Assembly (NCBI GenBank): GCA_025059775.1
Contig: JANXCW010000001.1
Span: 65,588-129,587 of the forward strand
DNA: 64,000 nt
Reading direction: 5' to 3'
From: Armatimonadota bacterium
Lineage (GTDB): Bacteria; Sysuimicrobiota; Sysuimicrobiia; Sysuimicrobiales; Sysuimicrobiaceae
Below the pieces are notes generated by a model that saw nothing but the letters and a program-made list of their open reading frames with translations, did no database searches and had not been told where the DNA came from. The position numbers were made by a program, and so were the translations under genes. This document shows, piece by piece, positions 17,069-38,219 of the stretch; position 1 is the first letter of the stretch; each line of letters begins with the position of its first letter.

Positions 17069-17446
17069 CTACTGCACCACCAGGGTGCCCGTCATCCCGG
17101 CTTCCCTGTGCCCGGGCACGCTGCAGTAGAACACGCTGCAGTAGAAGGGGAAGGTTCCCTTGGCGGTGGGCGTAAAGGTCACCTTTCCGGACTGGCCGGG
17201 CTTGAGAAGCCCCATCTTCACCTTGAATTTCTCCAGCACGAAGTCGTGCTCGATGACGCCCTTGTTCTCCATGAGGAGCTCCACGGGCTGGCCGGCTTTC
17301 ACTGGGATCCTGTTGGGGGTGTAGGAGAACTCCTTGGCCTCCACCCTGATCCTCTGCGGGGCCGCGCCCGCATGGAGGGCCGTCCAGACCCCCAACACCG
17401 CACCCAGAATCCCCACCACCCCCAGGGCCGTCACCTTCCGCCACAT
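17069..17446 (-). CDS. Secreted type-1 copper cupredoxin
   Basis: Signal peptide, EHDF, and FYCSV-FYCSVPGHREAGM.G.L.V (His/Cys/His/Met ligands). Confidence 0.85.
   Translation of the reverse strand: MWRKVTALGVVGILGAVLGVWTALHAGAAPQRIRVEAKEFSYTPNRIPVKAGQPVELLMENKGVIEHDFVLEKFKVKMGLLKPGQSGKVTFTPTAKGTFPFYCSVFYCSVPGHREAGMTGTLVVQ
17117..17146. repeat. Perfect 15-bp tandem duplication inside the cupredoxin gene
   Basis: CACGCTGCAGTAGAA occurs at 17117-17131 and 17132-17146. Confidence 0.95.
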
Positions 17447-17531: not shown

Positions 17532-18614
17532 CTATGGAGGCTGGTACGGACAGAGGGGATCGCTTTCGAGGGGATCGCCCGTGTGCGCATGGGCTCTGGC
17601 CCGGGAGCCTCCGCAGATCTCCCGGAAGGGACACCGGCCGCACTTGCCCCGCAGAAGGCCCGTATCCCGGATCCGCACGAACAGGTCCGCGTGCCGGTAC
17701 AGTTCCACGAGGCTATGCTCCCGCACGTTCCCCGCCCGAAGGGGCAGAAACCCCGAAGGGTACACCTCACCCGTGTGGGAGACGAAGACGATCCCGTTTC
17801 CGTCCCGGACCCCAAATCCCCGGCCCACGGGGGTCGAGGCGATGGCGGCCTCGCTGAGACCCCGGGTGCGCATGCGCAGAAACGCCACCCTCCGGTAGTG
17901 GGGGGCCTCCGTGGTCTTGATGGCAAAGGGCGCACGTGCGCCCAGGTCCAGGAGCCAGTGGCACAGCCGCTCTGCCTGCAGGGGCGTCACCTCCTCCAGT
18001 GCCTGCCCCCGGCCCACCCGGACCAGGAAGAAGAGACTCCAGCGGACAATGCCCAGTTCCCAGATCCGCTCATAGATAGCCGGAAGGTCCTCCAGGGTAG
18101 AGGCGGTGACGAGGGTGTTGACCTGGAGTTGAATTCCCTCCTCTCGGATTCGGTGCGCGAGGCGCAGGGTCCGTTCGAAGCATCCGGGAATGCCCCGCAG
18201 GGCATCGTGCCGCTCCGGGGTCGAGCCGTCCAGGCTGAGGGAGATGGCCTGCACGCCCGAACGTGCGAGGCGGCGGATGGCCGCATCCGTGACGAGGGGG
18301 GTTGCGCTGGGGGCAAGGGAAACGCCAAACCCCAGGGCCCGGGCCTCCTCCACGAGCTCCGCGAGGTCCGGCCGTTTGAAGGGATCCCCGCCCGTAAAGA
18401 CCCAGTGCGGAAGCGGGGGCCCGAAGGCTAGGGCGTCCCGGAGCATCCGGCGGCCTTCCTGGGTGGAGAGTTCGAGGGGGTGCCGCTCCGGAATGGCCTC
18501 CGCCCGGCAGTGGCGGCAGGCGAGGTCGCACGCCCGGGTGAGCTCCCAGTAGACGAGCAGCGGGGCCCGGTTGTAGACGTACCGGCGCTGGAGGATCGCC
18601 TCGGAGACGGCCAC
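17532..18614 (-). CDS. Radical SAM/SPASM protein (TIGR04053-like; AhbC/AhbD/NirJ-related)
   Basis: WELTRACDLACRHC (CxxxCxxC), TGGDP, YPSGFLP and CGRCPFREICGGSRARA. Confidence 0.85.
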   Translation of the reverse strand: MAVSEAILQRRYVYNRAPLLVYWELTRACDLACRHCRAEAIPERHPLELSTQEGRRMLRDALAFGPPLPHWVFTGGDPFKRPDLAELVEEARALGFGVSLAPSATPLVTDAAIRRLARSGVQAISLSLDGSTPERHDALRGIPGCFERTLRLAHRIREEGIQLQVNTLVTASTLEDLPAIYERIWELGIVRWSLFFLVRVGRGQALEEVTPLQAERLCHWLLDLGARAPFAIKTTEAPHYRRVAFLRMRTRGLSEAAIASTPVGRGFGVRDGNGIVFVSHTGEVYPSGFLPLRAGNVREHSLVELYRHADLFVRIRDTGLLRGKCGRCPFREICGGSRARAHAHTGDPLESDPLCPYQPP

Positions 18615-19334
18615 CTACCGACCCTCCCGCGTGAGCCCCTGCTCCCGCGCCCACACCCATACCTCCGGGGACCGCCGGAACCGGACCCCGAGCTTGCGCC
18701 GCACCCGGCGTACGTACTCCCGCACGGAGCCCTCCGTGAGTCCCAGGGTCCGGCCCACCGTGGTCCGAACCCGCTGGTCCGGCCCGTGGGCGGTGAGGTA
18801 GTACAGCACCAGCACCTCCACCTCCCGCCACGAAAGGCGGTAGCGGGTCCGCAGGCGCCGCAGGCCCTCTGGGGTGAGGCGGCCGTCCGCCAGGGCCTGC
18901 CGCACCACCCGGCTCGGCACCTCCTCCACCAGGACCCGCGCCTCCGGTGTGCGGGCGGGCAGGGCCTTCTGCACGAGCGCCGCAGCCAGACGCGCCATCT
19001 GCTCTGCCCGGGGTCGGGCCGTGCGGGGATTCCGGGCCAGCCACAGCTCCGCCAGCACCACCGCCTGGCGTGATCCGTTGCCCACAGGCACCACCAGGTG
19101 CGGCTTCGCATTCCTCGGACACACCCGCACGCCCGTGGTTTCCGGAGGCCCGCCGGCAAACGCCTGGGCCCCCTGACAGATCCCTCTCCACTCCGGCGCC
19201 TGCAGGCACGGGATGGTGTGCTGCCGCGGCGCCGCGAGGGGGGTGCCGTCCGAGGCGGCCACGAGGAGCGGGCAACCCGCTTCCTCGCTCAAGGCATCCA
19301 GGACTTGCGAGAAGGCCACTACGGGTTCCGCCAT
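18615..19334 (-). CDS. Putative one-component regulator: PocR-like sensor plus LuxR-like HTH
   Basis: N-terminal PC.....R.IC...VRVCP...HLVVPV pattern. C-terminal LSWREVEVL...LGLTEGSVREYVRRVRRKLG. Confidence 0.6.
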   Translation of the reverse strand: MAEPVVAFSQVLDALSEEAGCPLLVAASDGTPLAAPRQHTIPCLQAPEWRGICQGAQAFAGGPPETTGVRVCPRNAKPHLVVPVGNGSRQAVVLAELWLARNPRTARPRAEQMARLAAALVQKALPARTPEARVLVEEVPSRVVRQALADGRLTPEGLRRLRTRYRLSWREVEVLVLYYLTAHGPDQRVRTTVGRTLGLTEGSVREYVRRVRRKLGVRFRRSPEVWVWAREQGLTREGR

Positions 19335-19338
19335 GGTC

Positions 19339-19902
19339 TCACCCCACCAGGTACAGCGTGGGATAGATGAACACCCACGCCACGTCCACGAAGTGCCAGT
19401 ACTTCACCACCCCTTCCACGAGCCAGTAGTCGTCCGGCCCGTACCGGCCGCGACGGCCGTGCAGGTAGACGCCCAGCAGGAGCACCGCTCCGCTCAGCAC
19501 GTGCAGGCCGTGCAGCCCCGTGAGGGAGAAGAAGCTGGTGCCGTAGCGGGTCCCAGGCGGGAAGAAGTGGAAGCCCTCCACCCACTCCACCACCACGCCC
19601 ACCAGGAACACGCCCGCCAGCAGGATCGTCCACAGGGTGTTCCGCAGGAACCCTGCCCGGTCCCCGTGCGCGATGCAGGTCTCCGCCCGGTAGGCGGTGA
19701 GGCTGCTCAGGAGCAGCACCCCGGTGATGGCCAGTCCCAGAGGCTGATTCAGCTCCGGGGGCCGCTGGGTCCCCAGGTTCAGGTAGCGGGCCGCCACGAA
19801 GGCGCTGAAGAGCGCCGCCTCTGAGACGATGAAGAGCCACAGGCCCAGGCGCGCGTTCTGGAGTTCCTCCCGGGTGAGGCGAAGGGCGGCTTCGTGGCGC
19901 AT
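19339..19902 (-). CDS. ctaE: Heme-copper oxidase subunit III (short form)
   Basis: LWLFIVSE, T..LL.SS, FF.LTGLHGLHV and YWHFVDV.W motifs. Confidence 0.92.
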   Translation of the reverse strand: MRHEAALRLTREELQNARLGLWLFIVSEAALFSAFVAARYLNLGTQRPPELNQPLGLAITGVLLLSSLTAYRAETCIAHGDRAGFLRNTLWTILLAGVFLVGVVVEWVEGFHFFPPGTRYGTSFFSLTGLHGLHVLSGAVLLLGVYLHGRRGRYGPDDYWLVEGVVKYWHFVDVAWVFIYPTLYLVG

Positions 19903-19903
19903 G

Positions 19904-20098
19904 CTAGCCCTCCTCCCGTAACAGCTGCGAGGCGTGCATGAAGTACTCCGCGATGAGGGCGGTCTTTCCCAGGGCGATGAGCCCCAGCCACAGGAGGGAA
20001 CCGGGCCAGCGGGCCGCGAACCACTCCACCGCGGTGAGGGCCGCCAGTCCCGCGAACACCTGAACCCCCAGCCGGAACTTACGTGGCAACGGGCTCAT
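19904..20098 (-). CDS. ctaF: Heme-copper oxidase subunit IV
   Basis: Small two-TM protein with the K..LI..YFMH motif, lying between subunits I and III. Confidence 0.8.
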   Translation of the reverse strand: MSPLPRKFRLGVQVFAGLAALTAVEWFAARWPGSLLWLGLIALGKTALIAEYFMHASQLLREEG

Positions 20099-21923
20099 CC
20101 TCGCTCCCCCCCGTCACGCCGAGGACCGCATGCCGGATTCCGGGGATCCCGTACACGTAGGGCGGGCCCACCACCGCGGGCGGAGCGGGGAAGTTCTCCA
20201 CCGGTGGCGGGCTCGGCACCTGCCACTCCAGGGTGGAGGCCTCCCAAGGATTGGCCTCCGCCTGCGGCCCCCGGACCCAGCTCATGACGAAGTTGTACAG
20301 GAACACAAGGAAACTCATGCCCAGCAGGAAGGCCGCGATGCTGGTCCAGAAGTTCGTTCCACTCAAGGCCGTGGGGTAGTCCGCGATCCGCCGGTTCATC
20401 CCGTGCAGCCCCGCCCAGAACATGGGGAAGAAGGTCGCGTTGAAGGCCAGGAAGGTCCACCAGAAGTGCGCCCGGCCCAGCCGTTCGTCGTACATCCGGC
20501 CCGTGATCTTCGGGTACCAGTAGTACAGGGCCGCCAGAAGCGCGAAGATCTCCCCCCCCATGATGGTGTAGTGGAAGTGCCCCACCACGAAGTACGTGTC
20601 GTGCAGGTGCAGGTCCGTGGCCACGTCCGCGTTGAAGATCCCCGTGAGCCCGCCGATGAGGAAGTTCCACACCCATCCCAGGGCGAACAGCATGGGCGTA
20701 CGCAGCCACAACCTCCCCCGCACCAGGGTTCCCAACGCTCCCAGGAACACCAGGCCCGTGGGCACGGAGATGGCCTCCGTGGTGGCCATCATGGGCGCGT
20801 GCATCCAGTCGGGCATGCCGCTGGTGAAGTTGTGGTGGGCCCACACGATCCCGCTGAGCCCTACGATGCCCAGGAACCCTCCCACCACCCACCGGTAGGC
20901 GTACAGGGGCGTGCGGGCGAAGTGGGTGATGACCTCCAGAGCGGCGCCGAAGGCGGGCAGGATCATGATGTACACCGCGGGGTGGGAGTAGAACCAGAAC
21001 AGCTGCTGGTACACCACGGGAGTGCCTCCGCGGGCGAAGTGGAAGTAGCTCATCCCCGCCACCCGGTCCAGGAGCACCATGAGGAGGCTCGCGGCCAGGT
21101 ACTGGGTGAAGATGAAGCTCAGCAGGGATGCCGCGAACACGGACCAGACGAACACGGGGAGCCGGCTCCACGTCATGCCCGGCGCCCGCATGCGGGCGAT
21201 GGTCACGAGGAAGTTGATCCCGCCGAGGATGCTGGAGAGTCCGAACACGACCACGGCCACGATCATGAGAACCTGGCCCGGTGCGTTCACCGCGCTCAGC
21301 GGTGGGTAGGCGGTCCACCCGGAGTCCCACCCGCCCACGAAGAGGCTCGCCAGCAGCATGACGGCCACGGGCGGGGTGAGCCAGTAGCTGAGGGCGTTCA
21401 CCCGGGGGAAGGCCATGTCGTGGGCGCCGATCATCAAGGGCACCAGGTAGTTCCCCAAGCCCCCCAGGAAGATGGCCACGGCCACCGCGATCATGACAAT
21501 ACCGTGCAGACTCATCACCTGGTTGTAGCCGTTGAGGGTCAACAGCTGCATTCCCGGGCGCATGAGTTCCCAGCGCATGAGCATGGCCAGCAGCCCGCCC
21601 AGGAAAAAGAGTCCCAGGAAGGTCACCAGGTACTGGATCCCGATCACCTTGTGGTCCGTGGTGAACCGGAAGTAGCGGGCCACGCTCTTGTCCTCGGGCC
21701 ACGGACGCAGCGGAAGGCCGAACCAGCCCCGGGCCCACACCTCCCACATGCCTACCCCCGCCAGCCAGCCCACCGTGCCCAGGACGGCGCCGGTGGCGAG
21801 CTCCAGATCGAAGGAGAACGTCGCCCCTGTTGCGCGCACCAGTCCCGCGAGCACCGGGCCGCCCGCCACGTAGCCGACCGCGCCGTACAGGAGTCCTCTC
21901 AGGATAGGAGCCACCACCTGCAT
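20079..21923 (-). CDS. ctaD: Heme-copper oxidase subunit I, A2-type (YSHPxVY), with an atypical K-channel
   Basis: DHKVIG, SLHG, DMAFPRVN, FWFYSHPAVY, WAHH, HDTYFVVGHFHY and GMNRR. All six His ligands and the cross-link Tyr are present. Confidence 0.95.
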   Translation of the reverse strand: MQVVAPILRGLLYGAVGYVAGGPVLAGLVRATGATFSFDLELATGAVLGTVGWLAGVGMWEVWARGWFGLPLRPWPEDKSVARYFRFTTDHKVIGIQYLVTFLGLFFLGGLLAMLMRWELMRPGMQLLTLNGYNQVMSLHGIVMIAVAVAIFLGGLGNYLVPLMIGAHDMAFPRVNALSYWLTPPVAVMLLASLFVGGWDSGWTAYPPLSAVNAPGQVLMIVAVVVFGLSSILGGINFLVTIARMRAPGMTWSRLPVFVWSVFAASLLSFIFTQYLAASLLMVLLDRVAGMSYFHFARGGTPVVYQQLFWFYSHPAVYIMILPAFGAALEVITHFARTPLYAYRWVVGGFLGIVGLSGIVWAHHNFTSGMPDWMHAPMMATTEAISVPTGLVFLGALGTLVRGRLWLRTPMLFALGWVWNFLIGGLTGIFNADVATDLHLHDTYFVVGHFHYTIMGGEIFALLAALYYWYPKITGRMYDERLGRAHFWWTFLAFNATFFPMFWAGLHGMNRRIADYPTALSGTNFWTSIAAFLLGMSFLVFLYNFVMSWVRGPQAEANPWEASTLEWQVPSPPPVENFPAPPAVVGPPYVYGIPGIRHAVLGVTGGSEDEPVAT

Positions 21924-21927
21924 GCGC

Positions 21928-22722
21928 CTACCTCCGTGCCTGCTGCGCCACCCAGGCCTCAAACGCTTCCGGCTCCACCACCCGCACGGGGGCCGCCATG
22001 ATGCCATGGCCCACGCCGCACAGCTCCGCGCACTGCACCCGCAGGTCCGCGCTCTGTTCGAACGAACCCACGCGGGTCGGCGTCACGCGCAGGTAGGTGG
22101 TCAGGTTCGGCACCGCGTCGATCTTGGTGCGGAAGGCAGGCACCCAGAAGCTGTGCACGATGTCCACGGAGGTCACCTCGAAGCGCACCCGGCGGCCGGC
22201 AGGCAGAACCAGCTCCCGCGCGGTGACGTTGTGCTCCGGGTACTCGAACTGCCACAGCCACCGGCTGGCCCGGACCCGGACCACCAGCTCCCCGCCCGGG
22301 GGGAGCGACGGGAGTCCCACCGCCGCGTACCGGCCTCGGGCCAACAATCCCCCAAGGGGCACTCCCCGCATCTCCGCGAGCCCCACAAGTCCAGGGTTGT
22401 AGACCACGTAGACGCACAGGGCCGCGGTGAGGACGAACCATGTGCGGGGGATGGCGGGGTGCTCGGGGGTGTACGGGGGAGCTTCCGGTGGATCTCCCCG
22501 GCCACGCCGGGCCAGGAGCACGTACACGAGCACGGAGACCACCGCGGCGAACACAGGGCCGGCGAGCAGCATGAGGAGGCGGAAAGCGTGATCCGCCACC
22601 TCCGCCTCCCGTGCCGCGCTCAGAGGAAAGGCGTCGAATCGGGATGCCGCAAGCAGGAACAACGCACTGAACACCGCCCACAGGGCCACCAGGACTCCCG
22701 CGCGCATACCTTCCGGCTCCAC
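21928..22722 (-). CDS. ctaC: Heme-copper oxidase subunit II with CuA site
   Basis: Two TM helices, WLWQFEYP, DIVHSFWVP and CAELCGVGHGIM. No fused cytochrome c. Confidence 0.93.
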   Translation of the reverse strand: MEPEGMRAGVLVALWAVFSALFLLAASRFDAFPLSAAREAEVADHAFRLLMLLAGPVFAAVVSVLVYVLLARRGRGDPPEAPPYTPEHPAIPRTWFVLTAALCVYVVYNPGLVGLAEMRGVPLGGLLARGRYAAVGLPSLPPGGELVVRVRASRWLWQFEYPEHNVTARELVLPAGRRVRFEVTSVDIVHSFWVPAFRTKIDAVPNLTTYLRVTPTRVGSFEQSADLRVQCAELCGVGHGIMAAPVRVVEPEAFEAWVAQQARR

Positions 22723-22975
22723 GGGGTTTGGTTGACTCTACGTGAACACACGAAGTGCACGTGGGACATCAGTCCAGGACCTGATTTTGAGGGGAGCTGA
22801 GGTCGGGTCCGGGCCCGATGCGCCTGGGAACGTTTGTACTCCGAAGCACCCCCAGGAGGAATTTCCGGACGGAAGGGCGAACCTCACGGGTACTTGCAGG
22901 GTCGCGTGGATCCCCTCCCCAGCCGATGCACACTGTGCCCGCGACCTCCCTATCTTCAGGGTGGGAGGTGAGAAC

Positions 22976-23473
22976 ATGACGGGCCGGCCCGCGGACGCGA
23001 GGAGGCACCGCCGGGTGGTGCAGGAGTTCGAGGTGGATGCCCGCGTGAATCCCGAGCGCGTGCAGGCCCGCGTGGAGAACGGGGTGGCCATTCTCACCGG
23101 ACGCGTGAGCGGAGCAGTGGAGAAGTTCGCGGCTCAGGAAGCCGCCCACCGGGTCCCCGGAGTTCTGGACGTGGTGAACCACCTGAGCACGCAGGGGTTT
23201 CATCCCGCCCCTGCAAGCGACCTGGAGCTCGTGCGGGCCGTCCGGCGCGTCCTGCGCCGTCACCTCCCTACCCATCAGCGGGTGCGGTCCGCGGTGGAGT
23301 GCGGGTGGGTCACCCTCACGGGTTCGGTACCCTCCCGAGAGGATCGGGAGCGGGTGGAGCAGCTCGTGCAGGCGATCCCGCAGGTTCGGGGAGTGGTGAA
23401 CATGCTGGCCATCGAGGGCTCCTGTGCACCGGCTAGTCCTGCACGCGGGGCTAGGGCCCCACGTGCAGGGTGA
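22976..23473 (+). CDS. Dual BON-domain protein
   Basis: Two V..G.V.LTG.V...E...A......VPGV..V.N.L repeats. GGAGG RBS before the ATG at 22976; no signal peptide from that start. Confidence 0.8.
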   Translation: MTGRPADARRHRRVVQEFEVDARVNPERVQARVENGVAILTGRVSGAVEKFAAQEAAHRVPGVLDVVNHLSTQGFHPAPASDLELVRAVRRVLRRHLPTHQRVRSAVECGWVTLTGSVPSREDRERVEQLVQAIPQVRGVVNMLAIEGSCAPASPARGARAPRAG

Positions 23474-23828
23474 AGGTGGCGAGGATCCGCACGCCCTCCG
23501 CCTCCCCCGCTACTTTTATCTCCCACCGGCCGTCCATGGAGAAGGTGTGTTGGGCTTCGTAGCGCCCAGGGCCCGTCTGCCGGAAGAGGATCTCCTCCGG
23601 CTCGTGGGTCATCTCGGGCATGGAGGCCCGGACCTGGAGGTTCGTGACCGCGAGAGGGCGGCCGGAGTCGTCCCCGATCCGCAGTCGCAGGGTGGCGGGC
23701 TGGAGTGCCCGAGGTCGGGTGGGAGCCCATTCCAGGGAGGCCCTCCACCCCTCTCCACCGACCCGGGCTGTGGGGTTCGGGGTGCACGCCCCGAGGAGCA
23801 GGGTAAGGAGCAGGAGAGCCCACCTCAC
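23451..23828 (-). CDS. YtkA/FixH-like lipoprotein
   Basis: Lipobox LLGAC, SMPEMTH, GRYEA...FSMDGRWEI. GTGA overlap with the nosY stop codon. Confidence 0.7.
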   Translation of the reverse strand: MRWALLLLTLLLGACTPNPTARVGGEGWRASLEWAPTRPRALQPATLRLRIGDDSGRPLAVTNLQVRASMPEMTHEPEEILFRQTGPGRYEAQHTFSMDGRWEIKVAGEAEGVRILATFTLHVGP

Positions 23829-24649
23829 GGGCGCACGACTCGGGTAAACCTCAGGTGGCCCACCGCGTAGCTCACCCCGCTCCACCCGCCGAGTATCGCC
23901 AGCAGGGCCAATAGGGCGCCCGTCTGCCCCAGCCGGTCTACCGCGAGCAGGGCCAGGGGGCCCAGGAGCTCGGGGCTGTGGGTCACGAGCAGGATCCCGC
24001 TCATGCGGAAGGCGGAGAGGGGGTTCAGGGCGGCCAGCAGGAGCACCGCCCAGGACGGAAGCCGCAGGCTCAGCGCGGCCCCCAGCACCCCGAGATCCCC
24101 TAGCACCCCGAACCCCAGCCACGCCAGCAGGGCCCAGCCCAGGGCCCTCCCTCGGGTGGGCGCGAAGGCGGAGATCAGGAGCCCCACGGAGAGCATGGAA
24201 AGCGCCAGCAGGCTCGAAAGGCCCACTAGGGCCAAAAAGGTGCCCCCGTGCTCCGCGCCCGCGCCCCAGGCGAGCACAATCCCCGCACCCCCGTATCCGA
24301 GCCAGATGGCCGACAGCACCGAGGCCGCCAGTCCCACGTACCGTCCCGCGTACAGGGCACCGCGGGAGATGGGCTGGGCCAGCAGGAACTCCAGGGATCC
24401 GGTTTCCCGATCCCCTGCCAGCCACCCCGCGCCCAAGGTAAGGCCCAAAAGGGGGATGAAGAGCTGCGCGAGGTGCAACAGGGCCGCCGCGGCCCGGTCA
24501 AAGGAGGAGAGTCCGACCACCCGGAGACCTGCCAGGGCGGTGAAGGCGGCTCCGAGGGTGAGGGCCCAGAAGGCGAAGGCCAGGGAGAGAAACCACCGGT
24601 CCCTCAGGCTCGCCCGCGCGTCCCATCGGGCCAGGATGAGGGCGGTCAT
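23825..24649 (-). CDS. nosY: NosY ABC transporter permease
   Basis: LRDRW, PLLGL.LG...LAGDRETGSLEFLLAQPISR and NPLSAFR motifs; nos context. Confidence 0.88.
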   Translation of the reverse strand: MTALILARWDARASLRDRWFLSLAFAFWALTLGAAFTALAGLRVVGLSSFDRAAAALLHLAQLFIPLLGLTLGAGWLAGDRETGSLEFLLAQPISRGALYAGRYVGLAASVLSAIWLGYGGAGIVLAWGAGAEHGGTFLALVGLSSLLALSMLSVGLLISAFAPTRGRALGWALLAWLGFGVLGDLGVLGAALSLRLPSWAVLLLAALNPLSAFRMSGILLVTHSPELLGPLALLAVDRLGQTGALLALLAILGGWSGVSYAVGHLRFTRVVRP

Positions 24650-25488
24650 GCGCGTACCCCCCGCATAAAGTCCTCCACCTCGGGCTCGTGCACCCGGAAG
24701 GGCAGACCCCGGAGGAGCGGCAGGAGCTCGGGGAGAGCGGCATTCGGTACCCGCAGGCGCACGGTGCCGTTGCGGCTCGCGATCACCTCCACCCCCGCGG
24801 GCAGATGCTCCGGCTGCGCCCCTTGCACCACCACCTCCACCCAGTACAGACGCCACAGTTCGCCGGCGGGGACGTCCGCCACCACCTTTCCACCTTCCAG
24901 CACCACCACCCGATCCACGAGCTGCTCCAGGCGCCGCAGGTGGTGGCTCGCCACCACCACCGTCTTCCCCGTCGCCGCCTCCAGCCAGCTCGCCAGCCAC
25001 TCCTCCCCTCCCCGGTCCAGGTAGCTGGTGGGCTCGTCCAGTGCCAGCACCGGTGGATCCCCCACGAGGGCCACCGCGATCCCCAGCCGGCGGAGCATGC
25101 CGCCAGAGAGGCACACCACGGGCTTGCCCCCGTGCCCTTGAAGACCTGCCCGTTCCAGCAAGGGCCAGGGGTTTGGCACTTCTCCCCGCAGCTCCTGGAC
25201 CAGGGCCACCACCTCCGCGGCCGTGAGGTGGAGAGGAAAGGCAGGAAGCTGCGGGACGTAGCCCACGAGCCGCCGGGCCACGGCCCCCTGACGCCGGACG
25301 TCGTAGCCGCCTACGGTCACCTTACCCTCGTACGGCACCAGATCCAGCAGACAACGCAGCAGGGTGGTCTTGCCCGCACCGTTCGGGCCCAGGAGGGCTA
25401 CCCGCTGCCCCGGAGACACCTCCAGGCTCACCTCCTCCAATACCGCCCGGTTCCCAAACCGCACCGTGACTCCCTCCCAGCGGATCAT
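24646..25488 (-). CDS. nosF: NosF ABC transporter ATPase
   Basis: GPNGAGKTT, LSGGMLRR and LDEPT motifs; ATGA overlaps on both sides. Confidence 0.9.
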   Translation of the reverse strand: MIRWEGVTVRFGNRAVLEEVSLEVSPGQRVALLGPNGAGKTTLLRCLLDLVPYEGKVTVGGYDVRRQGAVARRLVGYVPQLPAFPLHLTAAEVVALVQELRGEVPNPWPLLERAGLQGHGGKPVVCLSGGMLRRLGIAVALVGDPPVLALDEPTSYLDRGGEEWLASWLEAATGKTVVVASHHLRRLEQLVDRVVVLEGGKVVADVPAGELWRLYWVEVVVQGAQPEHLPAGVEVIASRNGTVRLRVPNAALPELLPLLRGLPFRVHEPEVEDFMRGVRA

Positions 25489-26813
25489 CCCCCCACCTCC
25501 CACCGCCGCGACCTCCGTACCCACCACACCACACCGAGACCCAACAGGGCGACCCCCAGGCCGTGGACGGCGAAGGCGGCCGAGCGCTTCTCCTCGAGGA
25601 ACTCCGGGGGTACCGTGGGGTGCACGAGCGGCTTGGGATCCACCAGCACCTGGTGGGGAGCGAACAGGGGGAATGCGCGGGAGGCCAGTTCCACCGCCTG
25701 CAGGCCGGGACTCGCGTGGAGCAGGCCCGCGGCGGGCACGTTCTCCGATGCGGACTCGAACCACCGTCGCAGGCGGAAGGGGAGTTCTCCAACCCCATCC
25801 CCGTCCAGATCCACCCCCGCGTACTCGTCCCAGGAGTTCCTCTCCCACCGGTTGCGAGCACTCGCCCCGCCCTCCACGCGCAACGTCTCCCGGTTCACCG
25901 CAAAGGTGTTCTGGGTGAAGATGTTGCCCGAGGCGTTGGTGAGGAGGAGCAGGCCGACCGCGTTCCCGGCCACCACGTTCCCCTCGAATCGTCCGCGCCC
26001 TTCTCCTCCCATGGGGGTGGCGTCCAGGTACAGCCCCACGTGGTTCCCCACCAGCGCGTTGGCGCGCACCTGTACCTCGTCCGACTCCTTGAAGGCCAGG
26101 CCCACCCCCGGCACGTCCCGGTTGTGGAGGAAGCGGTTCCCCTCCACCCGGACGCCCGCGCTGTACATGACGTACGCGCCCACGGCGTTCCCCTCCAGGG
26201 TGCTGTCCAGCAGAGGCGTGCGGTGCGCGTACATGTAGTGCACGCCGTACCGGGAGTTGCGGACGCGCAGCCGGTGCAGCACCGACCCCTCCGTGAACCA
26301 CAGCAGGACGTCCCGCATGCTCTCCACGTCAAGATCCGTGAGGACGACCCGCTGGCTGTACCACAGCCGCACCGCGTCCCCCCGCCGGTTCAGCGGCAGG
26401 GGCTTTCCGGAGAGCCGCACCCGCCGCACCACGGCCCCGTCCGCCTGCTTGAGGTTCAGGCCGAACAGCACGTCCTCCAGCACCAGGTCTTCCAGCACCA
26501 CCCCAGCAGCGCCCACGAACACCCCCGCGTCCTCCGTGTTCAGCTCGGAGCCGCTGGCTCGGATGCGCAGCCGGCCCAGGTACACACCCGGTGCTTCGAT
26601 CCGCACCACGGTCCCCTCTCCGCCCCCGTCCACCACCGCTCCGGGCTCTCCCACGATCCGCAGCGGCTTGCGCACCACCACCGGACCCCGCACCACCCCC
26701 CGGACCACCACCTCCGAGCCCGCGGGAGCCGCGTCCACCAGAACCTGCAGGCTCGGCACAGACCCCGCCGCGGGCAGCACGGCCAACGGCAGAACCACCC
26801 ACAGCCAGCTCAA
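25485..26813 (-). CDS. nosD: NosD periplasmic copper-insertion protein
   Basis: Beta-helix repeats, RGDAVRLWYS, RYGVHYMY, N.WDEY.G.DLDGDGVG and LVDPKPL. TTG start. Confidence 0.92.
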   Translation of the reverse strand: MSWLWVVLPLAVLPAAGSVPSLQVLVDAAPAGSEVVVRGVVRGPVVVRKPLRIVGEPGAVVDGGGEGTVVRIEAPGVYLGRLRIRASGSELNTEDAGVFVGAAGVVLEDLVLEDVLFGLNLKQADGAVVRRVRLSGKPLPLNRRGDAVRLWYSQRVVLTDLDVESMRDVLLWFTEGSVLHRLRVRNSRYGVHYMYAHRTPLLDSTLEGNAVGAYVMYSAGVRVEGNRFLHNRDVPGVGLAFKESDEVQVRANALVGNHVGLYLDATPMGGEGRGRFEGNVVAGNAVGLLLLTNASGNIFTQNTFAVNRETLRVEGGASARNRWERNSWDEYAGVDLDGDGVGELPFRLRRWFESASENVPAAGLLHASPGLQAVELASRAFPLFAPHQVLVDPKPLVHPTVPPEFLEEKRSAAFAVHGLGVALLGLGVVWWVRRSRRWEVGG

Positions 26814-27424
26814 CGGGCCGCCACCTCCGCGGGCCCCGCTACAGGTCGCGCCCGCTCCGCCCGCGGCTGCCTACAGTACAGGTCGCACAGCGCCACCAGA
26901 CTTGCCAGCAGCGCCAAGTAGAAGCCCACGTGGAAGGTGGCCACGGTCCGGAACTGGGCGATCACGCCGCTGCCCAGGACCACTGGCATGAAGGGCTCCA
27001 GGCGGATCGGGGCTGCGGGATCCATGGAGTGGCCGTAGTACCACAGCCAGGCGCTCAGGTCCGCGAAAAAGCCCAGGGGGAACAGCACGAGGGGCAACCG
27101 CAGCAGCCAGCGCCAGGGTTCTCGCTGGGTGCCCGAGGCCACCGCCAGCGCTCCGAACAGCAGTACCAAGGGCACCGCCATCGCCCGCTCCACGGGCGCT
27201 GCGTCCTCCAGGGGCTTCATGCCGATGTAGTGGTTCAGAGTGCTGATCTCCTCCGCGTCCCCCGCCACGTGGGTCAGGTAGACCATCGCCCGCAGACCCC
27301 CGGGGTACTGGGGCGCGTACAGGCTCAGCTGCCAGTACGGAAAGAACAAGGAGGCCGCCAGCAGCCCGGCCGCCACCAGCAGCCACCGGACCCCACCTCC
27401 GCGTCTCCCTCTCTCACCGTTCAA
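26810..27424 (-). CDS. nosB: NosB-like membrane protein of clade II nos clusters
   Basis: W.L.L.APQYP.GL...GD..EI..LNHYIGM motif, directly downstream of nosZ. GGAGGT RBS before a TTG start. Confidence 0.8.
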   Translation of the reverse strand: MNGERGRRGGGVRWLLVAAGLLAASLFFPYWQLSLYAPQYPGGLRAMVYLTHVAGDAEEISTLNHYIGMKPLEDAAPVERAMAVPLVLLFGALAVASGTQREPWRWLLRLPLVLFPLGFFADLSAWLWYYGHSMDPAAPIRLEPFMPVVLGSGVIAQFRTVATFHVGFYLALLASLVALCDLYCRQPRAERARPVAGPAEVAAR

Positions 27425-27443
27425 CTGCGTACCTCCCAGAACC

Positions 27444-27473
27444 GCTGGGGGCGGGCAAAAGCCCGCCCCCAGC
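27444..27473 (-). repeat. Perfect 13-bp stem-loop between nosZ and nosB, with no U-tract in the sense direction
   Basis: GCTGGGGGCGGGC-AAAA-GCCCGCCCCCAGC. Confidence 0.85.
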
Positions 27474-27481
27474 TTCCTCCC

Positions 27482-29458
27482 CTACGGCTCGATCTCCAGG
27501 TAGCCCATCATCTCCAGGTGCAGCGCGGAGCAGAACTCCGTGCAGTAGAAGGGGTACACGCCCGGCCGCTCTGCCCGCAGAACCACCGTCTCCGTCTTCC
27601 CGGGTTCCAGGCTCAGGTTCACGTTGTGCCGGTCGATGGCGAACCCGTGGATCGCGTCCTTCGTCCGTTCCACATTCGTCAGATGGAAGATCACCGTGTC
27701 GCCCCGCTTCACCCGCACCCGATCCGGTACGAAGTGGCTCCTGAGGACGGTCATATACACCCGTACCGTCCGCCCCTCCCGCACGATCCGGGACTGTCCG
27801 GGCTTCGTCGCGTGTGGGTCGGGCCGCATGGTCCGCGGGTTGGTGCCCGTCGGGTACACCTCCCACGGCCGCAGCCGGTCCATCCGGATGATCTGCGCCA
27901 GGTGCGGCTCCCCGATCCCGATGGGCATGTTGTACAGCAGCTTCATCTCGTCCCCGCTGATGTCGATCAGCTGGAAGTTCTGCGGCAGTAGCGGTCCGAC
28001 GTTCTTGTACTGGTCCACGGACCACTTGTTGAGAGCCACCAGGTACTTGCCGCCCGGCTTCACCGTGTCACCCTCCACTGCGGTCAGGTGGCCGATGTTG
28101 TACTGGACCGGCAGCTTCTGCACCAGCTTCCACCCACGGTCTGCCGGGTTGTATGGCGGCCCCAAGGTCCACTTGGCGACCGCGCTGTCCAGGAACAGGC
28201 TGGTGTACGCGTTCCCCTTGTCGTCGAACATCGTGTGGAGCGGCCCCAAGCCCAGCTTCACCTGAGCCGCCACAACCGCGTCGAACTTCAGGATGGGTAC
28301 CCCGTAGTCGTCCCGACCAGCGAACGCCTTGTTGCGGATGGCTTCCTGGATCTTCCGGAAGCTGTAGACGGTGACGTTGGGGTCCAACTTGCCGCCCACC
28401 ACGATGTAGTCGCCCCGTGGGGCCACATCCAGCCCATGGGGGCTCTTCGGCTCCGGCGCCAGGTACAGGATGCCTGCTTCCACCGCGTCCCGCAGCCGGA
28501 TCACCTTCATCCCGTTGACCACGGTGTACCGGCCCTGGGCCACGAGCTGCTCGGCCCGCCTCCAGTTCACGATGTGCAGGTAGTCCATGTCCCGGGCCGA
28601 CGCACCCACCTCGATGGGCGGCCTCTTCTCGAGGGTACCCCCGATCGCCCGCTCACTGTTGAAGGAGTTCCAGAACGCCCACCCGTCGCTCTCGAGCTTG
28701 CCGAAGTCCGCCAGGTCCTGCCAGTAGGGCGGGAGTTCAATCTGGAAAGACTTACCGACGTCGATGCGCCCGGTCCCCCGGTCGAACTTCCAGAAGGTCG
28801 CGAGTCCCCGGTAGTGCCGGTTGTAGTTCTCCTGCGTGAGCGGCACGTACCGGAAGGGGAAGGGCGCCGCGTACTGGGTCACCTCCAGCACGTACTCCGT
28901 GTTGGGGCTCACCACGGCACCGTGGTTGCTCACCGCATTGGGGTTGGTGACGATCTGCTTGGTGGCGAAGTCCCGGAGGTCGATGACCGCGATGCGGCTA
29001 CCCGCCTTGTCGTTGATGAACAGCCACTTGCCGTCGTACTCCCCGTTGGTCTCGCTCAGGGCCGGGTGGTGGGTGTCCCCCCACGCCAACCGTGGATCCT
29101 TGCTCCTCCACCCGAGGATGGTCTCGGTTTCCTCGGAGCCCACCCCGTACCCCTGCCAGGGTTCCGGGGCGAACACGCCGATCACCCGCAACAGCCGCAT
29201 GGAGGGGATTCCGATTACCAGGACCTGTCCGCCCTGCCCGGCCGACGAGAACATCAGGTACTCGTCGTGCTTGCCGGGAGGCACGTACGTCTGGATAGCC
29301 GCCCGGACCTGGTCCGGGGTCAACCCCTTGGCCTCGATGAGGCTCTGCACGTCTTGGGGCAGGGTTCCTGCCCGCTGGGCCTGCCCTGCCAGGGAGACCC
29401 CCAGCACCACCGCCGTGGTCACCGCCACGAGCCCGATGAGAGTCCTCTCCCACTTCAT
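27482..29458 (-). CDS. nosZ: Nitrous-oxide reductase, clade II (Sec-dependent)
   Basis: Sec-type signal with no twin Arg. CuZ His motifs DTHH, NHG, PHG, GPLH, IGH and EPH. CuA motifs IHGF and CTEFCSALHLEM. Confidence 0.96.
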   Translation of the reverse strand: MKWERTLIGLVAVTTAVVLGVSLAGQAQRAGTLPQDVQSLIEAKGLTPDQVRAAIQTYVPPGKHDEYLMFSSAGQGGQVLVIGIPSMRLLRVIGVFAPEPWQGYGVGSEETETILGWRSKDPRLAWGDTHHPALSETNGEYDGKWLFINDKAGSRIAVIDLRDFATKQIVTNPNAVSNHGAVVSPNTEYVLEVTQYAAPFPFRYVPLTQENYNRHYRGLATFWKFDRGTGRIDVGKSFQIELPPYWQDLADFGKLESDGWAFWNSFNSERAIGGTLEKRPPIEVGASARDMDYLHIVNWRRAEQLVAQGRYTVVNGMKVIRLRDAVEAGILYLAPEPKSPHGLDVAPRGDYIVVGGKLDPNVTVYSFRKIQEAIRNKAFAGRDDYGVPILKFDAVVAAQVKLGLGPLHTMFDDKGNAYTSLFLDSAVAKWTLGPPYNPADRGWKLVQKLPVQYNIGHLTAVEGDTVKPGGKYLVALNKWSVDQYKNVGPLLPQNFQLIDISGDEMKLLYNMPIGIGEPHLAQIIRMDRLRPWEVYPTGTNPRTMRPDPHATKPGQSRIVREGRTVRVYMTVLRSHFVPDRVRVKRGDTVIFHLTNVERTKDAIHGFAIDRHNVNLSLEPGKTETVVLRAERPGVYPFYCTEFCSALHLEMMGYLEIEP

Positions 29459-29943
29459 CTCCCTTCACCTCCCTTGCGTTCGTTCGTTTCGGACCCGGGA
29501 AGCCAGAAGGGACTCCGAAGCTCCGGGGGATCCCGGGCCCACCAGGGTTCCAGAAGGGCGTCCAGGGTGATCCGACCCAGGGCCTCTACCAGCTGCGGCC
29601 GCACGCCCGCCCACACCGGGTGCAGCACGCACGGCCGGTCCTCCGAACAGCGGCTATCCCAGAACACGCACCGCCGGAAATAGTCCGGGCCCTCCACCGC
29701 CTCCAGAACCTCCCGAACGGAGATCTCGCGGGGAGAGCGGGTGAGGGCGTATCCGCGGCTGCGGCCCCGGGAGGAGCGCAGCAGCCCCAAGCGCACCAAC
29801 CGTCGCAGGGTCTTGCTCAGGAACTCCCGGGGAAGCCCGCAGGCCTGCGCTACCCGCGAGGCCGGGGCCGCTTCTCCTCCCGAAAGCCCCGCGAGGTAGC
29901 TGAGAGCCCGCAGCGCGTACTCCGTCTCCCGGGTCAGACGCAC
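29455..29943 (-). CDS. Rrf2-family regulator with a three-Cys Fe-S motif
   Basis: TEYALRAL, L.K.LRRL, S.RGR..GY.L and C-x6-C-x5-C-x2-H. Stop codon overlaps the nosZ ATG (ATGA). Confidence 0.88.
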   Translation of the reverse strand: MRLTRETEYALRALSYLAGLSGGEAAPASRVAQACGLPREFLSKTLRRLVRLGLLRSSRGRSRGYALTRSPREISVREVLEAVEGPDYFRRCVFWDSRCSEDRPCVLHPVWAGVRPQLVEALGRITLDALLEPWWARDPPELRSPFWLPGSETNERKGGEGR

Positions 29944-30287
29944 GACGCACTCCGAAAACGACTCCGCCGGTCCAAGGCCTCCCGGGGCCACAGGTCCAGC
30001 GGATCTTTTGGATCCGATGCCACGGTAAGGGCTGACGGGCCCCACCGCCATCCGACGGGGAACCGATTTCCCAAGGGAGCGAGAATCCGACGCGGGACCG
30101 ATCCTCCATGCCCGCGGGATCTCATGGACCTTCCCGGATCCGGCATAAGGCGGACAGATCCATCCTCCACCCGAGGGGGAAATCGGGTCCGCACCGGATG
30201 CCCGAATTCCGGAGCCCATGAGAGAAGTGGTGCGTAAGCCCGCGCCTGAAGGGGGGGCGCGGGCTAGTGTGCTTGCCGGAGGAAGGT

Positions 30288-30947
30288 ATGCTCGTCCAAG
30301 ATGTGATGACCGCGAACCCGGTGACCACGGCCCCGCAGGCACCCCTACAGGAGGCCCTGGAGCAGATGCAGAGCCTTCGGGTTCGTCATCTCCCCGTGGT
30401 CTGGGGCAACCGGCTGGTGGGCGTGGTGACGTGGACGGACATCCTGCGGGCAGCCCTTCCGCCCCTGGCGTCCGGGGAAGCGGACCGCCCTCCTGTCCTT
30501 CCGCACAATCTCACGGTTTCCGAGGTGATGACCCGCGAGGTGATCACCATCTCCCCGCAAGCCACGGTGGAGGAGGCGGCGACCCTCCTGCGCCGGCACC
30601 GAATCGGTTGCCTTCCCGTGCTGGATCGGGAACAGCTGGTGGGAATCGTTACCAAGAGCGATCTCTTCGACGCCCTGGTCTACCTGCGGGGCGGAGATCT
30701 GGACGGCGTCCGGCTGTCCGTGGCCCTGCCGGGAGGGCTGGAGGATCTCCATCGCCTGGTGCAGGCCCTCCGGACCCTGCAGCCGAACCGCTGGGGACTT
30801 GTCCTTTCCGTGCGCCTGGATGGGATGATTAAGCGGGCGGATCTGTGCGCTACAAATGTCCCACCCCTGGTGCTCGCGGAACACCTGGCTGCGGCGGGGC
30901 TCCACCCCTTCCATCTCCGGTTCCGGGTACCCACCAAGTCCCGGTGA
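30288..30947 (+). CDS. CBS-domain pair protein with an ACT-like C-terminus (AcuB-like)
   Basis: V.DVMT.NP, RHLPVV, IGCLPV and GIVTKSD motifs. Confidence 0.85.
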   Translation: MLVQDVMTANPVTTAPQAPLQEALEQMQSLRVRHLPVVWGNRLVGVVTWTDILRAALPPLASGEADRPPVLPHNLTVSEVMTREVITISPQATVEEAATLLRRHRIGCLPVLDREQLVGIVTKSDLFDALVYLRGGDLDGVRLSVALPGGLEDLHRLVQALRTLQPNRWGLVLSVRLDGMIKRADLCATNVPPLVLAEHLAAAGLHPFHLRFRVPTKSR

Positions 30948-32549: not shown

Positions 32550-33240
32550 GGTCCTCCGGTCAGACCGCCTTCCGCACATCTGGTGCCCGGGGTGCGGCCT
32601 AGGGACGGTGCTCGGTTGCTTCGCCCGGGCCATGGTGGCCTCGGGCATCCCCCTGGACCGGCACGTGGTGGTCTCGGGCATCGGCTGCACCGGCCGGGCC
32701 GCGGGCTACCTCAACGTGGATGGCTTCCACACCCGCAACATGGATCTGAACGTGATCTGCGTCAACAACTTCAACTACGGGATGACCGGGGGCCAGCTCG
32801 GCCCCACCACCCCGCAGGGCGCCATCACCACCACCTCCCCCTACGGCTTTCCCGAGGAGCCTTTCAACCTCCCCCGGCTGCTGACCGCTTGCGGGGCCGT
32901 GTTCGTGGCCCGGTGGACGTGCCTCCACGTGCGCCAGCTGGAGGCCACCATGGTCCGCGCCCTGCGGAAGCGGGGATTCCGCTTCATCGAGGTCCTCGCC
33001 CCGTGTCCTGTGGGATTCGGACGGCCCAACGACCTGGGCGAGGGCATCGACGAGCTGTGGTTCTACCGGCGCCAGGCGGACTACGACCCCCAGGCGGCCC
33101 TGGAGAGGCTGGAGATCCGCATGCGCAAGGACTCGAAGATCGTGTGGGGGGTGTTCGTGGACACTGAGCGCCCCACTTACATGGATCGGTACCGGGAGTA
33201 CGTGCTCCGCAAGGTCCAGGAAGGTCCCGGTGCGGCGTGA
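32509..33240 (+). pseudogene. korB: 2-oxoacid:ferredoxin oxidoreductase beta subunit with an in-frame deletion of the TPP-binding GDGD segment
   Basis: WCPGCG, SGIGC, then FHT joined directly to RNMD...NN..YGMTGGQ at about 32733. Confidence 0.85.
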
Positions 33241-33754: not shown

Positions 33755-33762
33755 GTGGCGCC

Positions 33763-38208: not shown

Positions 38209-38219
38209 GAGGGATCGCC

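Follow-up and report, generated by a model that had tools for sequence, protein, structure and literature searches.

A K-channel-variant A2-type oxidase operon from Sysuimicrobiota, with a conserved Glu-Ser-Asn set on helices VIII and IX of its subunit I

We analysed a DNA window of 64,000 nt (the whole stretch under study; assembly GCA_025059775.1, contig JANXCW010000001.1; about 69% GC) and focused on the genes for a heme-copper oxidase that lie on its minus strand in the order coxII, coxI, coxIII. All positions are counted along the window, as they were in an earlier note on this DNA, which had been made from the letters alone and which described an A2-type oxidase with a dismantled K proton channel and new glutamates within the membrane. 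The three genes are the following.

21928..22722, minus strand: coxII, encoding a subunit II with two transmembrane helices and a CuA cupredoxin domain, and with no fused cytochrome c domain (Pfam COX2)
20079..21923, minus strand: coxI, encoding an A-family subunit I of the A2 (YS) type, 614 aa counted from M29 (PF00115, E = 3e-139; the reading frame is open up to 22007)
19339..19902, minus strand: coxIII, encoding a short subunit III of 187 aa (PF00510, E = 7e-24)

The probable true start of coxI is M29 (at 21923), where a GGAGG ribosome-binding site precedes the codon. By sequence as well as by fold, CoxI is a member of the A-family and not of the B or C families or the nitric oxide reductases (NORs). 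HMMER comparison with solved structures ranked the caa3 oxidase (2yev_A, E = 1.3e-127) and aa3 (E = 1e-110) far before ba3 (E = 1e-10), and the top 50 Foldseek matches of the AlphaFold2 (AF2) model of CoxI (pTM 0.89) were all A-family proteins, with the R. sphaeroides aa3, the P. denitrificans and the caa3 oxidases as the best (TM-score 0.75-0.78, normalised to the query).

To assign individual residues, the window proteins and their homologues were aligned (MAFFT) with the bovine COX1 and COX2 reference sequences, which were confirmed to be identical to 1occ_A and 1occ_B. These alignments, together with those made by HMMER, agree with the by-eye alignment of the earlier note, in that the metal ligands, the cross-link Tyr, the YS motif, the D-channel, R438/R439 and the CuA site are intact. 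The heme and CuB ligands H168, H342, H391, H392, H477 and H479 (bovine H61, H240, H290, H291, H376 and H378, respectively) are invariant among 120 homologues, and Tyr346, four residues after H342 in helix VI, occupies the position of the cross-link Tyr (bovine Y244) throughout the clade described below and would form the same cofactor. At the position of bovine E242 the protein has A344, and it carries the A2-type pair Y340-S341 (bovine 238/239) instead. The D-channel is represented by D197, N186 and N204 (bovine D91, N80 and N98) as well as by its serines S207, S258 and S259 (bovine S101, S156 and S157), and R438/R439 (bovine numbering) are conserved. CoxII has the WxW entry motif and the CuA ligands H, C, E, C, H and M that mark a CuA-binding subunit II, and both are conserved within the clade.

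The K-channel is different. Of the residues by which it is canonically defined (Lys319, Thr316, Ser255, Tyr244 and the subunit II Glu; PMC3084760, Table 2), only Thr417 and Tyr346 remain in the window proteins. The residue features that distinguish the two subunits are the following.

20970..20990, minus strand: helix VI active-site motif WFYSHPAVY, with the YS pair (A2), the CuB ligand His342 and Tyr346; invariant in the clade
20937..20939, minus strand: Leu357 where the K-channel Ser (bovine S255) is expected; Leu throughout the clade (100%) and Ser in 91/97 K-bearing relatives
20748..20750, minus strand: Val420 (GTG codon, in PTGLVF) in place of the K-channel Lys (bovine K319)
22447..22449, minus strand: CoxII Pro92 (in AIPRTW) where bovine COX2 has the K-channel entry Glu (E62)
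20766..20777, minus strand: helix VIII motif T-E411-A-I-S414, with Glu at bovine M310 (codon 20775-20777) and Ser at bovine A313
20736..20744, minus strand: Leu422 and Ala424, small residues at the cytoplasmic end of helix VIII where the bovine protein has the bulky aromatics Phe321 and Trp323
20664..20666, minus strand: Asn448 in helix IX (bovine L347), clade-specific and present in 100% of the clade
20550..20552, minus strand: Glu486 in helix X (bovine A385), subclade-specific; Glu in 97/120 clusters
20829..20831, minus strand: Asn393 after the CuB His pair (HHNF; bovine M292), found in Sysuimicrobiota only (6/120 clusters; L001-L007)
21723..21911, minus strand: two extra N-terminal transmembrane helices that precede the canonical 12, with the Trp/Gly motif GWLxGxGxWxxWxRxWFG (AF2 helices 5-31 and 38-67, 614-aa numbering)

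The codons that the earlier note had given for the exchange of K319 for Val, of the CoxII Glu for Pro, and for the new Glu and Asn residues all translate as it had said, and the alignments place every one of them (M310 to E, A385 to E and M292 to N for the new polar residues). A Lys at the K319 position, for which the proper alignment was checked, is not there: Val420 stands opposite bovine K319 and opposite K328 of caa3 (HMMER against 2yev_A: 'VPTGLVFLG' against 'VPTGVKLFN'). CoxII Pro92 takes the bovine E62 position in an alignment of 79 sequences, and it faces the E of 'LEVVW' in the caa3 subunit II in an HMMER stretch that is weak and anchored on the Trp.

The AF2 model of CoxI comprises 14 long helices, and the N-terminal extension of about 100 residues is common to the clade. 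Seven of its residues (W53, G56, G58, W60, W63, W67 and G69, 614-aa numbering) are invariant among 46 homologues, and it can be aligned with that of the Acidiferrobacter CoxA; conservation to this degree suggests that the extra helices have a function beyond membrane anchoring. Glu486 in helix X is buried, seven residues past the low-spin heme His and roughly at the region of the bovine H-channel (Ser382/Ala385). Thermoflexus and some others have M, G or Q at this place, and the CoxA of acidophiles has V or M.

The residue pattern of the window oxidase is that of a conserved clade. Within the 120 closest clusters at 90% identity (58-90% identical to the window CoxI) none has Lys319 (Val in 94, Ile in 25 and Phe in 1) and all 120 have Glu310. 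A genome scan with one genome per species yielded 80 loci, 70 of which belong to the clade (54-93% identity, same residue pattern) and which stem from Chloroflexota (including Thermoflexus and Dehalococcoidia), Actinomycetota, a metagenome-assembled genome (MAG) labelled Elusimicrobia, and Sysuimicrobiota. The closest genomes are hot-spring MAGs of Candidatus Sysuimicrobiota (CSP1-3), among them Ca. Sysuimicrobium calidum (locus L007; CoxI with 93% amino-acid identity) and Ca. Tepidifontimicrobium (L002). The catalytic features (the six His, Tyr244, R438/R439, D91/N80/N98 and YS) are invariant in the 120 clusters and 70 genomes. The order coxII-coxI-coxIII is kept in about 70 species of several phyla (coxIII lies 3' of coxI in 73/80 loci), and this conservation therefore points to long-term purifying selection and not to decay.

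The next relatives are found in the Caldilineae, at 43-47% identity, and these have the canonical Ser255 and Lys319 and a hydrophobic residue at 310. The entry position of CoxII shows the same division: within the clade it is occupied by P (49), T (5), I (5), A (3) and others, never by Glu, and in 10/10 K-bearing Caldilineae by Glu. Since CoxI and CoxII split alike between clade and Caldilineae, the loss of the K-channel in both subunits is, to judge from the alignments, coordinated and ancient. The coordinated loss in two intact genes, which the earlier note had drawn from a single pair of genes, is thereby extended to the clade as a whole, with the losses of K319, S255 and the CoxII Glu all conserved; of the residues gained, Glu310 is conserved with them, Glu385 is found in 97/120 clusters and the HHN motif in Sysuimicrobiota only.

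The same note had called K319 near-invariant, which does not hold: it is absent in 57/142 of the nearest A-family representatives, and K-less subclades had already been listed in PMC8239418. These representatives, taken at 50% identity, include none that is more than 50% identical to the query and served as outgroups for the contrasts. In a rough neighbour-joining tree of CoxI, drawn without bootstrap or maximum likelihood, the clade adjoins P0130 (the Acidiferrobacter cluster), P0133, P0123 and P0125, which are of the HPEVY type with two extra helices, and the next neighbours after these are the K-bearing Caldilineae, likewise with two extra helices. The window CoxI thus has the marks of one lineage: extra N-terminal helices, non-ionisable residues at the K354 and S291 positions (P. 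denitrificans numbering), and a grouping with the COX1 of acidophiles and of Chloroflexi/Actinobacteria. Many NCBI records (e.g. P0009, P0012, P0020, P0022, P0026 and P0030) label these subunit I proteins 'cbb3-type cytochrome c oxidase subunit I', a misannotation, since the proteins are of the A-family (caa3/aa3-like) and not of the C-family.

We then contrasted 71 sequences of the clade with 97 K-bearing A-family sequences and extracted the residues that are clade-specific and nearly invariant: Leu357 (bovine Ser255), His362 (Tyr260), Ala370 (Gly269), Glu411 (Met310), Ser414 (Ala313), Leu422 (Phe321), Ala424 (Trp323), Asn448 (Leu347, helix IX), Asp461 (Asn360), Phe530 (His429) and Asn538 (Pro437). 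Glu411 and Ser414 occur in every clade sequence (100%) and seldom elsewhere, and within the clade Glu411 is always accompanied by Ser414, Asn448 and Asp461. Leu422 and Ala424 occur in 99% and 96% of the clade, respectively, where 93/97 of the K-bearing relatives have F and W. Among the 142 A-family representatives Lys319 is found in 0/20 of those with Glu310 and in 85/122 of those without it (Fisher p = 1e-9, uncorrected for shared ancestry), and Glu310 is paired with Ser or Thr at 313 in 18/20.

Asn347 goes together with Glu310 in the bacterial lineages with two extra helices, and the Glu-Ser pair recurs in archaeal COX1-3 fusions (Marsarchaeota, Thermoplasmata and Hydrothermarchaeota). Related K-less lineages have Asp or Glu at 317 together with Ser313, on the same helix face as 310: on a helical wheel, positions 310, 313 and 317 are grouped at 40-100 degrees from Thr309, and Lys319 lies at 280 degrees. 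Two sequences, P0128 and P0129, look intermediate, as they keep Ser255 and Trp323, have Glu310 and Ser313, and carry Leu or Phe in place of Lys319; in the neighbour-joining tree P0128 stands beside a K-bearing Caldilineae group with two extra helices. Both could help to order the substitutions. In the literature that we searched, nothing specific was found on a helix VIII Glu that replaces the K-channel Lys, and the conserved Glu-Ser-Asn motif, apparently undescribed, seems to be the fresh lead that remains.

The motif extends beyond the clade to acidophiles. Cluster P0130 groups at 90% identity with the CoxA of Acidiferrobacter thiooxydans (WP_065972084), which is the entry 'A2 rus operon, modified K-channel' of PMC8239418. 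This CoxA is 43% identical to the window CoxI over 595 residues, which span the full length with the N-terminal extension; it reads 'TETVSIPTGFVF' where the window has 'TEAISVPTGLVF', with TExxSxPTGxVF as the common motif. A search seeded with P0130 recovered 115 proteins, all of them with Glu310 and Ser313 and without the Lys, and most also with Asn347, Asp360 and MNRR, from taxa such as Acidithiobacillus ferriphilus, Acidihalobacter, Sulfobacillus thermosulfidooxidans, Ferroacidibacillus and Acidimangrovimonas. The earlier note had known of no characterised enzyme with this signature; the combination of no Lys, Glu310 and Ser313 is in fact present in the CoxA of cultured aerobes (Acidiferrobacter, Acidithiobacillus ferriphilus, Sulfobacillus and Acidihalobacter).

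D91, N80 and N98 are lost in the CoxA of Acidiferrobacter/Acidithiobacillus/Acidihalobacter, Sulfobacillus and Ferroacidibacillus, and kept in Acidimangrovimonas and in the window clade. Four of the acidophile sequences (P0338, P0316, P0344 and P0349, from Acidithiobacillus, Acidiferrobacter and Acidihalobacter) have neither the D-channel residues nor the Lys and keep Glu310, Ser313 and Asp360; three of them (P0338, P0316 and P0344) also have Asn347, which in P0349 is Thr. Because the canonical D-channel residues are missing there, the Glu/Ser/Asn set is the obvious candidate for the proton route of the acidophile enzymes. The rus-operon oxidase of A. ferrooxidans is said to have been purified with cytochrome c oxidase activity. 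This aa3 oxidase is described as the terminal enzyme by which Fe(II) electrons reach O2, in an operon that also encodes the cupredoxin rusticyanin (PMC2621215). The clade oxidase itself is carried by Thermoflexus MAGs; the cultured T. hugenholtzii was grown with 1% O2, and a 'cytochrome c oxidase' is its reported terminal oxidase (PMC8129789).

The surroundings of the oxidase genes in the window are as follows.

18615..19334, minus strand: 239-aa protein, a possible regulator with a weak GerE/LuxR-type helix-turn-helix (GerE E = 0.008, under threshold)
17532..18614, minus strand: radical SAM/SPASM protein of the TIGR04053 family, AhbD/heme b synthase-like (TIGR04053 462 bits, cut-off 395)
17069..17446, minus strand: membrane-anchored cupredoxin (blue copper protein) of 125 aa, candidate electron donor (Pfam Cupredoxin_1, Copper-bind)
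22742..23473, plus strand: gene with two BON domains, by domain match, between nos and cox
23451..30342, minus strand: nos cluster, context outside the oxidase, with an Rrf2 regulator, nosZ, a 204-aa membrane protein, nosD, nosF, nosY and a YtkA/FixH-like lipoprotein

The minus-strand genes thus follow each other in the order coxII, coxI, coxIII, the 239-aa GerE-like gene, the TIGR04053 radical SAM gene and the cupredoxin gene. For the neighbour families we used only those that were confirmed by Pfam, as the stop-to-stop reading frames in DNA of 65-70% GC include antisense artefacts. The GerE-like gene is conserved downstream of coxIII, and the TIGR04053 gene is linked to cox (L002-L005 and L007), in Sysuimicrobiota only; the next best model for the radical SAM protein is AhbD/heme b synthase (E = 3e-88), and the protein may tie an O2-independent step of heme maturation to the oxidase. 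Cupredoxin genes recur beside the cox genes of the clade (13 + 7 loci), and a HisKA_3 kinase with a NarL/GerE response regulator recurs near the operon in about 15 clade loci. Within the window cupredoxin, a short stretch at the putative Cys copper ligand is duplicated ('FYCSVFYCSV').

The nos cluster lies upstream of cox on the same strand, and its nosZ (27482-29458, minus strand) is of the Sec-type clade II. In the gene for the Rrf2-family regulator, upstream in the cluster, the reading frame is open over 295 aa and the Rrf2 domain begins at residue 136; the 204-aa membrane protein, without a Pfam match, follows nosZ at the place usually held by nosB, and the YtkA/FixH-like lipoprotein stands where nosL is expected. 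The BON-domain gene has a GC content at third codon positions (GC3) of 0.75, compared with 0.88-0.93 in its neighbours, and it is 85% identical in L007. Further away, the plus-strand block 31974-40023, with electron-transfer genes of an anaerobic style, encodes 2-oxoacid:ferredoxin oxidoreductase subunits, EtfA/EtfB and two HdrA-like FAD/FeS proteins, one of which has an MvhD/FlpD domain, and this suggests flavin-based electron bifurcation near genes for aerobic and N2O respiration.

Linkage with nos was tested by tblastn of the window nos and cox proteins against the 80 genome loci. Among the 70 clade loci, nosZ and nosD were found beside cox only in the window and in L007; no nos genes were detected near cox in the other Sysuimicrobiota L002, L004 and L005, within 10 kb flanks. 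The 'nosZ' matches at L009 and L067 cover residues 563-658 only (the cupredoxin domain), and a nosZ linkage at the level of the clade was rejected; the link to nosZ for which the earlier note had proposed a check is thus a local one. An HMM search of the six-frame reading frames of the window and the 80 loci recovered no second heme-copper oxidase and no norB. Caa3_CtaG was not seen among the window reading frames that were scanned with Pfam, which are a part of all those in the window, and the remainder of the genome lies outside the data; for the lineage with two extra helices and a modified K-channel, an association of Caa3_CtaG with the operon is listed as 'yes' (PMC8239418, Suppl. Table S1).

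Taken together, the conserved catalytic residues and the cultured relatives are in line with the reading that coxII-coxI-coxIII encode a working O2 reductase of the A2 type, which belongs to a lineage with two extra helices and a modified K-channel; we consider this reading likely, and we assign O2 reduction to the window oxidase itself with fairly good confidence. The recurrent cupredoxin neighbours, like rusticyanin in the rus operon (PMC2621215), support a cupredoxin-fed enzyme. Still, O2 as the substrate, the cupredoxin as the donor and a new proton route are each things that we infer, and several observations weigh against this picture. To our knowledge, no member of the exact clade has been purified or assayed. 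K-channel Lys mutants of model A-type enzymes are nearly inactive, and the activity of the window oxidase therefore depends on a putative compensating route. The co-variation statistics take no account of shared ancestry, and the placement of Glu411 relative to CuB and heme a3 is by helical periodicity only (100 degrees from Thr309 and 180 from Lys319). With regard to the A. ferrooxidans enzyme, the motif is confirmed for A. ferriphilus and Acidiferrobacter only, and its presence in the CoxA of A. ferrooxidans itself is unconfirmed. Both window subunits score below the NCBIfam equivalog cut-offs, with 611 bits against 670.75 for CoxI (TIGR02891, CtaD) and 135 bits against 147.7 for CoxII (TIGR02866, CoxB). 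Finally, O2 respiration by the window organism is putative, since the enrichment of Sysuimicrobiota was done under anaerobic conditions with H2 and nitrite (PMC11604079).

The operon lies about 700 bp away from a nosZ-DFY cluster that is complete and has an Rrf2-type regulator, and the L007 homologue is placed likewise; this invites the alternative that its substrate has shifted and that it acts as a NOR, or as a reductase of another N-oxide or of peroxide, that works with the adjacent nos system and uses the helix VIII Glu as NORs do. The enrichment of relatives on nitrite under anoxia (PMC11604079) would fit this, as would the resemblance of E411/S414 to Glu280, critical for function, and Ser277 of cNOR, which lie on helix VIII in a hydrophilic pocket atop the K-pathway region (PMC3431322). 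We nevertheless regard it as very improbable. The cross-link Tyr is invariant in the clade and absent from NOR families; eNOR, sNOR, gNOR, nNOR and bNOR, moreover, are derived from the B-family (PMC11214002), so that these new families do not apply to CoxI, an A-family protein with the Tyr that is neither B- nor C-derived, and membership in them was rejected. Neither of the NOR motifs of PMC3084760 is matched: in place of H-x-Arom-x-E the protein has H342-P-A-V-Y346, with Tyr instead of Glu at His+4, and in place of H-H-x-Arom-Arom-x17-E it has H391-H392-N-F-T...E411, with no aromatic pair and the Glu 19 and not 21 residues past the second His. The pumping D-channel is retained, nos is absent at the other 69 clade loci (three Sysuimicrobiota with 10 kb flanks included), and aerobic iron oxidisers share the signature. 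A role as NO or N2O reductase is thus unlikely. The rewired proton path that the earlier note had offered stands as a reasonable inference, and its other suggestion, NO, N2O or H2O2 as the substrate, is left unsupported in view of the conserved Tyr, CuB His and D-channel.

The adjacency of nos in the window and L007, together with the slower turnover that K-channel loss is known to cause in model enzymes, could also mean that the oxidase is a slow and poorly coupled O2 scavenger that shields the O2-sensitive NosZ rather than conserving energy, as the earlier note had considered. However, this adjacency is confined to one genus-level lineage and has no counterpart at the level of the clade, which is widespread in genomes without nos nearby, and both the D-channel and subunit III, which are typical of coupled pumping enzymes, are conserved. 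A-type oxidases would also be poor scavengers, since they are generally described as low-affinity enzymes, as in the Sysuimicrobiota paper, where coxABC is called a 'low-affinity' terminal oxidase (PMC11604079), and we judge scavenging quite improbable. That the genes are decaying remnants in which the K-channel was lost through disuse has the loss of canonical residues in its favour and nothing further, and its probability is next to nil: the frames are intact, GC3 is 0.92-0.93 as in other window genes, and, with 58-90% identity over 120 clusters, invariant catalytic residues and the operon order kept in about 70 genomes, gene decay is excluded by conservation.

The remaining alternative concerns the route of the protons and not the substrate. 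The D-channel, which is fully conserved in the clade, might supply all protons by itself, and Glu411, Ser414 and Asn448 might be structural or tune redox properties, for instance by a hydrogen bond to a CuB His. Thr309, the neighbour of Glu411, is known to contact a CuB ligand region, which we count in favour of this explanation, and a continuous path to Glu411 is so far putative. On the other side, the acidophile relatives keep the Glu/Ser/Asn set and have lost D91, N80 and N98, so that their protons cannot all enter by the D-channel, and the exchange of Phe for Leu and of Trp for Ala at the cytoplasmic end of helix VIII suggests a cavity that has been opened. We therefore hold the D-channel-only explanation to be unlikely, though it deserves more weight than the three just discussed. 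The proposal that Glu411-Ser414, Asn448 and Asp461, together with the Phe to Leu and Trp to Ala exchanges, form an undescribed proton-input path that ends in a carboxylate and replaces the K-channel comes from residue patterns, and we put it forward tentatively, as a possibility that falls short of an even chance.

For an O2 reductase of this type, the sequence of events might be as follows. A periplasmic donor, most likely the nearby membrane-anchored cupredoxin (or a cytochrome c), would reduce CuA in subunit II, from where electrons would pass via the low-spin heme to the heme a3-CuB-Tyr centre, at which O2 would be reduced to water. The D-channel (D197, N186, N204, with Y340/S341 substituting for the helix VI Glu) probably carries the pumped protons and most of the chemical ones. 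The task of the lost K-pathway, i.e. proton uptake and charge compensation while the binuclear centre is reduced, would probably pass to Glu411 and Ser414, on a neighbouring face of helix VIII, and to Asn448 on helix IX, with the cavity opened by Leu422 (for Phe) and Ala424 (for Trp) at the cytoplasmic end of helix VIII as a part of the route. The net effect would be a water path that terminates in a carboxylate in place of one gated by a lysine, and the side of helix VIII along which it would run lies opposite to that of the K-channel. A cytoplasmic water channel has been reported for qNOR, and the proposed path would resemble the Glu pocket of NORs at the top of the K-region (PMC3431322).

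If this is true, the K-channel has been replaced in a large and ancient A-family lineage that includes Chloroflexota, Actinomycetota, Sysuimicrobiota and iron-oxidising acidophiles and for which the archaeal COX1-3 fusions offer a parallel, and a Glu411-type path would be the sole proton route in those acidophile enzymes that also lack the D-channel. For the window as such this has little weight: the operon, as we read it, encodes the coxABC terminal oxidase of the organism, and its place beside nos is a local arrangement. For bioenergetics, natural A-type oxidases without a Lys that is indispensable in model enzymes probe the need for two proton channels. The pairing of K-loss with the helix VIII Glu-Ser, which reaches from hot-spring Chloroflexota to Acidithiobacillus, offers concrete residues to mutate, and some of the carriers are already in culture (Thermoflexus hugenholtzii, Acidithiobacillus and Sulfobacillus); the acidophile CoxA proteins without D-channel residues and Lys would be the cleanest systems in which to look for an alternative proton route.

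Compared with known systems, the best solved relative is the caa3 oxidase of Thermus thermophilus (2YEV), which serves as structural reference for the A2 type, with 44% identity in the Foldseek alignment, which has in common with the window enzyme the YS motif, the D-channel, CuA and the heme/CuB ligands. In contrast to the window enzyme, K328 and the Glu of subunit II are present in caa3, its subunit I is joined to subunit III in one chain and its subunit II carries a fused cytochrome c domain; it has neither the extra N-terminal helices nor a Glu at the 310 or 385 positions. NORs belong to the same superfamily as CoxI and likewise have no K-channel Lys and a Glu with Ser on helix VIII near the binuclear centre (PMC3431322), but they are without the cross-link Tyr, and cNOR and qNOR have a Glu ligand to FeB. 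The CoxBACD systems of the rus operons of Acidithiobacillus and Acidiferrobacter share with the window L255, A323, N347, D360, MNRR and TExxSxPTGxVF, as well as the replacement of the COX2 entry Glu (by V in rus) and a cupredoxin in or next to the operon. Their CoxA is HPEVY-type, with Glu242 kept, D91/N80/N98 lost and no helix X Glu, whereas the window CoxI is of the YS type with an intact D-channel, and their physiology, Fe(II) oxidation at pH 2, is unlike that of the window organism.

Loss of the K-channel has been met before in other settings, too: a 2026 preprint on Ferrigenium (10.64898/2026.01.22.701106) describes a K-less A-family COX, the physiological meaning of which it calls 'unclear', and Sysuimicrobiota genes of this kind had been named, as coxABC, in PMC11604079. 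Degli Esposti et al. 2021 (PMC8239418) list several K-less A-type subclades, including one that matches the window clade: the 'Chloroflexi hybrid/KC channel' subclade of the A2 type (Suppl. Table S1), from unclassified Chloroflexi, Elusimicrobia and Actinobacteria, with one or two extra N-terminal transmembrane helices and a K-channel given as 'no, KC or hybrid'. It is like the window clade in its taxa, its A2 type, its extra helices and a COX2 entry position (E78 in P. denitrificans) that is often non-ionisable. In the table for Fig. S7 of that study, KRT60364 of Chloroflexi bacterium CSP1-4 is entered with Y280, S291 to L, K354 to V, T351 and E at 292, a pattern that equals Y346, L357, V420, T417 and E358 of the window; this likeness rests on the table entries, and the placement of KRT60364 inside the clade is unconfirmed. 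The study scores canonical and cbb3-type (KC) positions only and is silent on the Glu/Ser of helix VIII, the Asn of helix IX and the Glu of helix X, and Sysuimicrobiota are not among the taxa that it lists. Loss of the K-channel is thus already described, and the window locus is a Sysuimicrobiota addition to a known K-channel-variant lineage of A-type oxidases.

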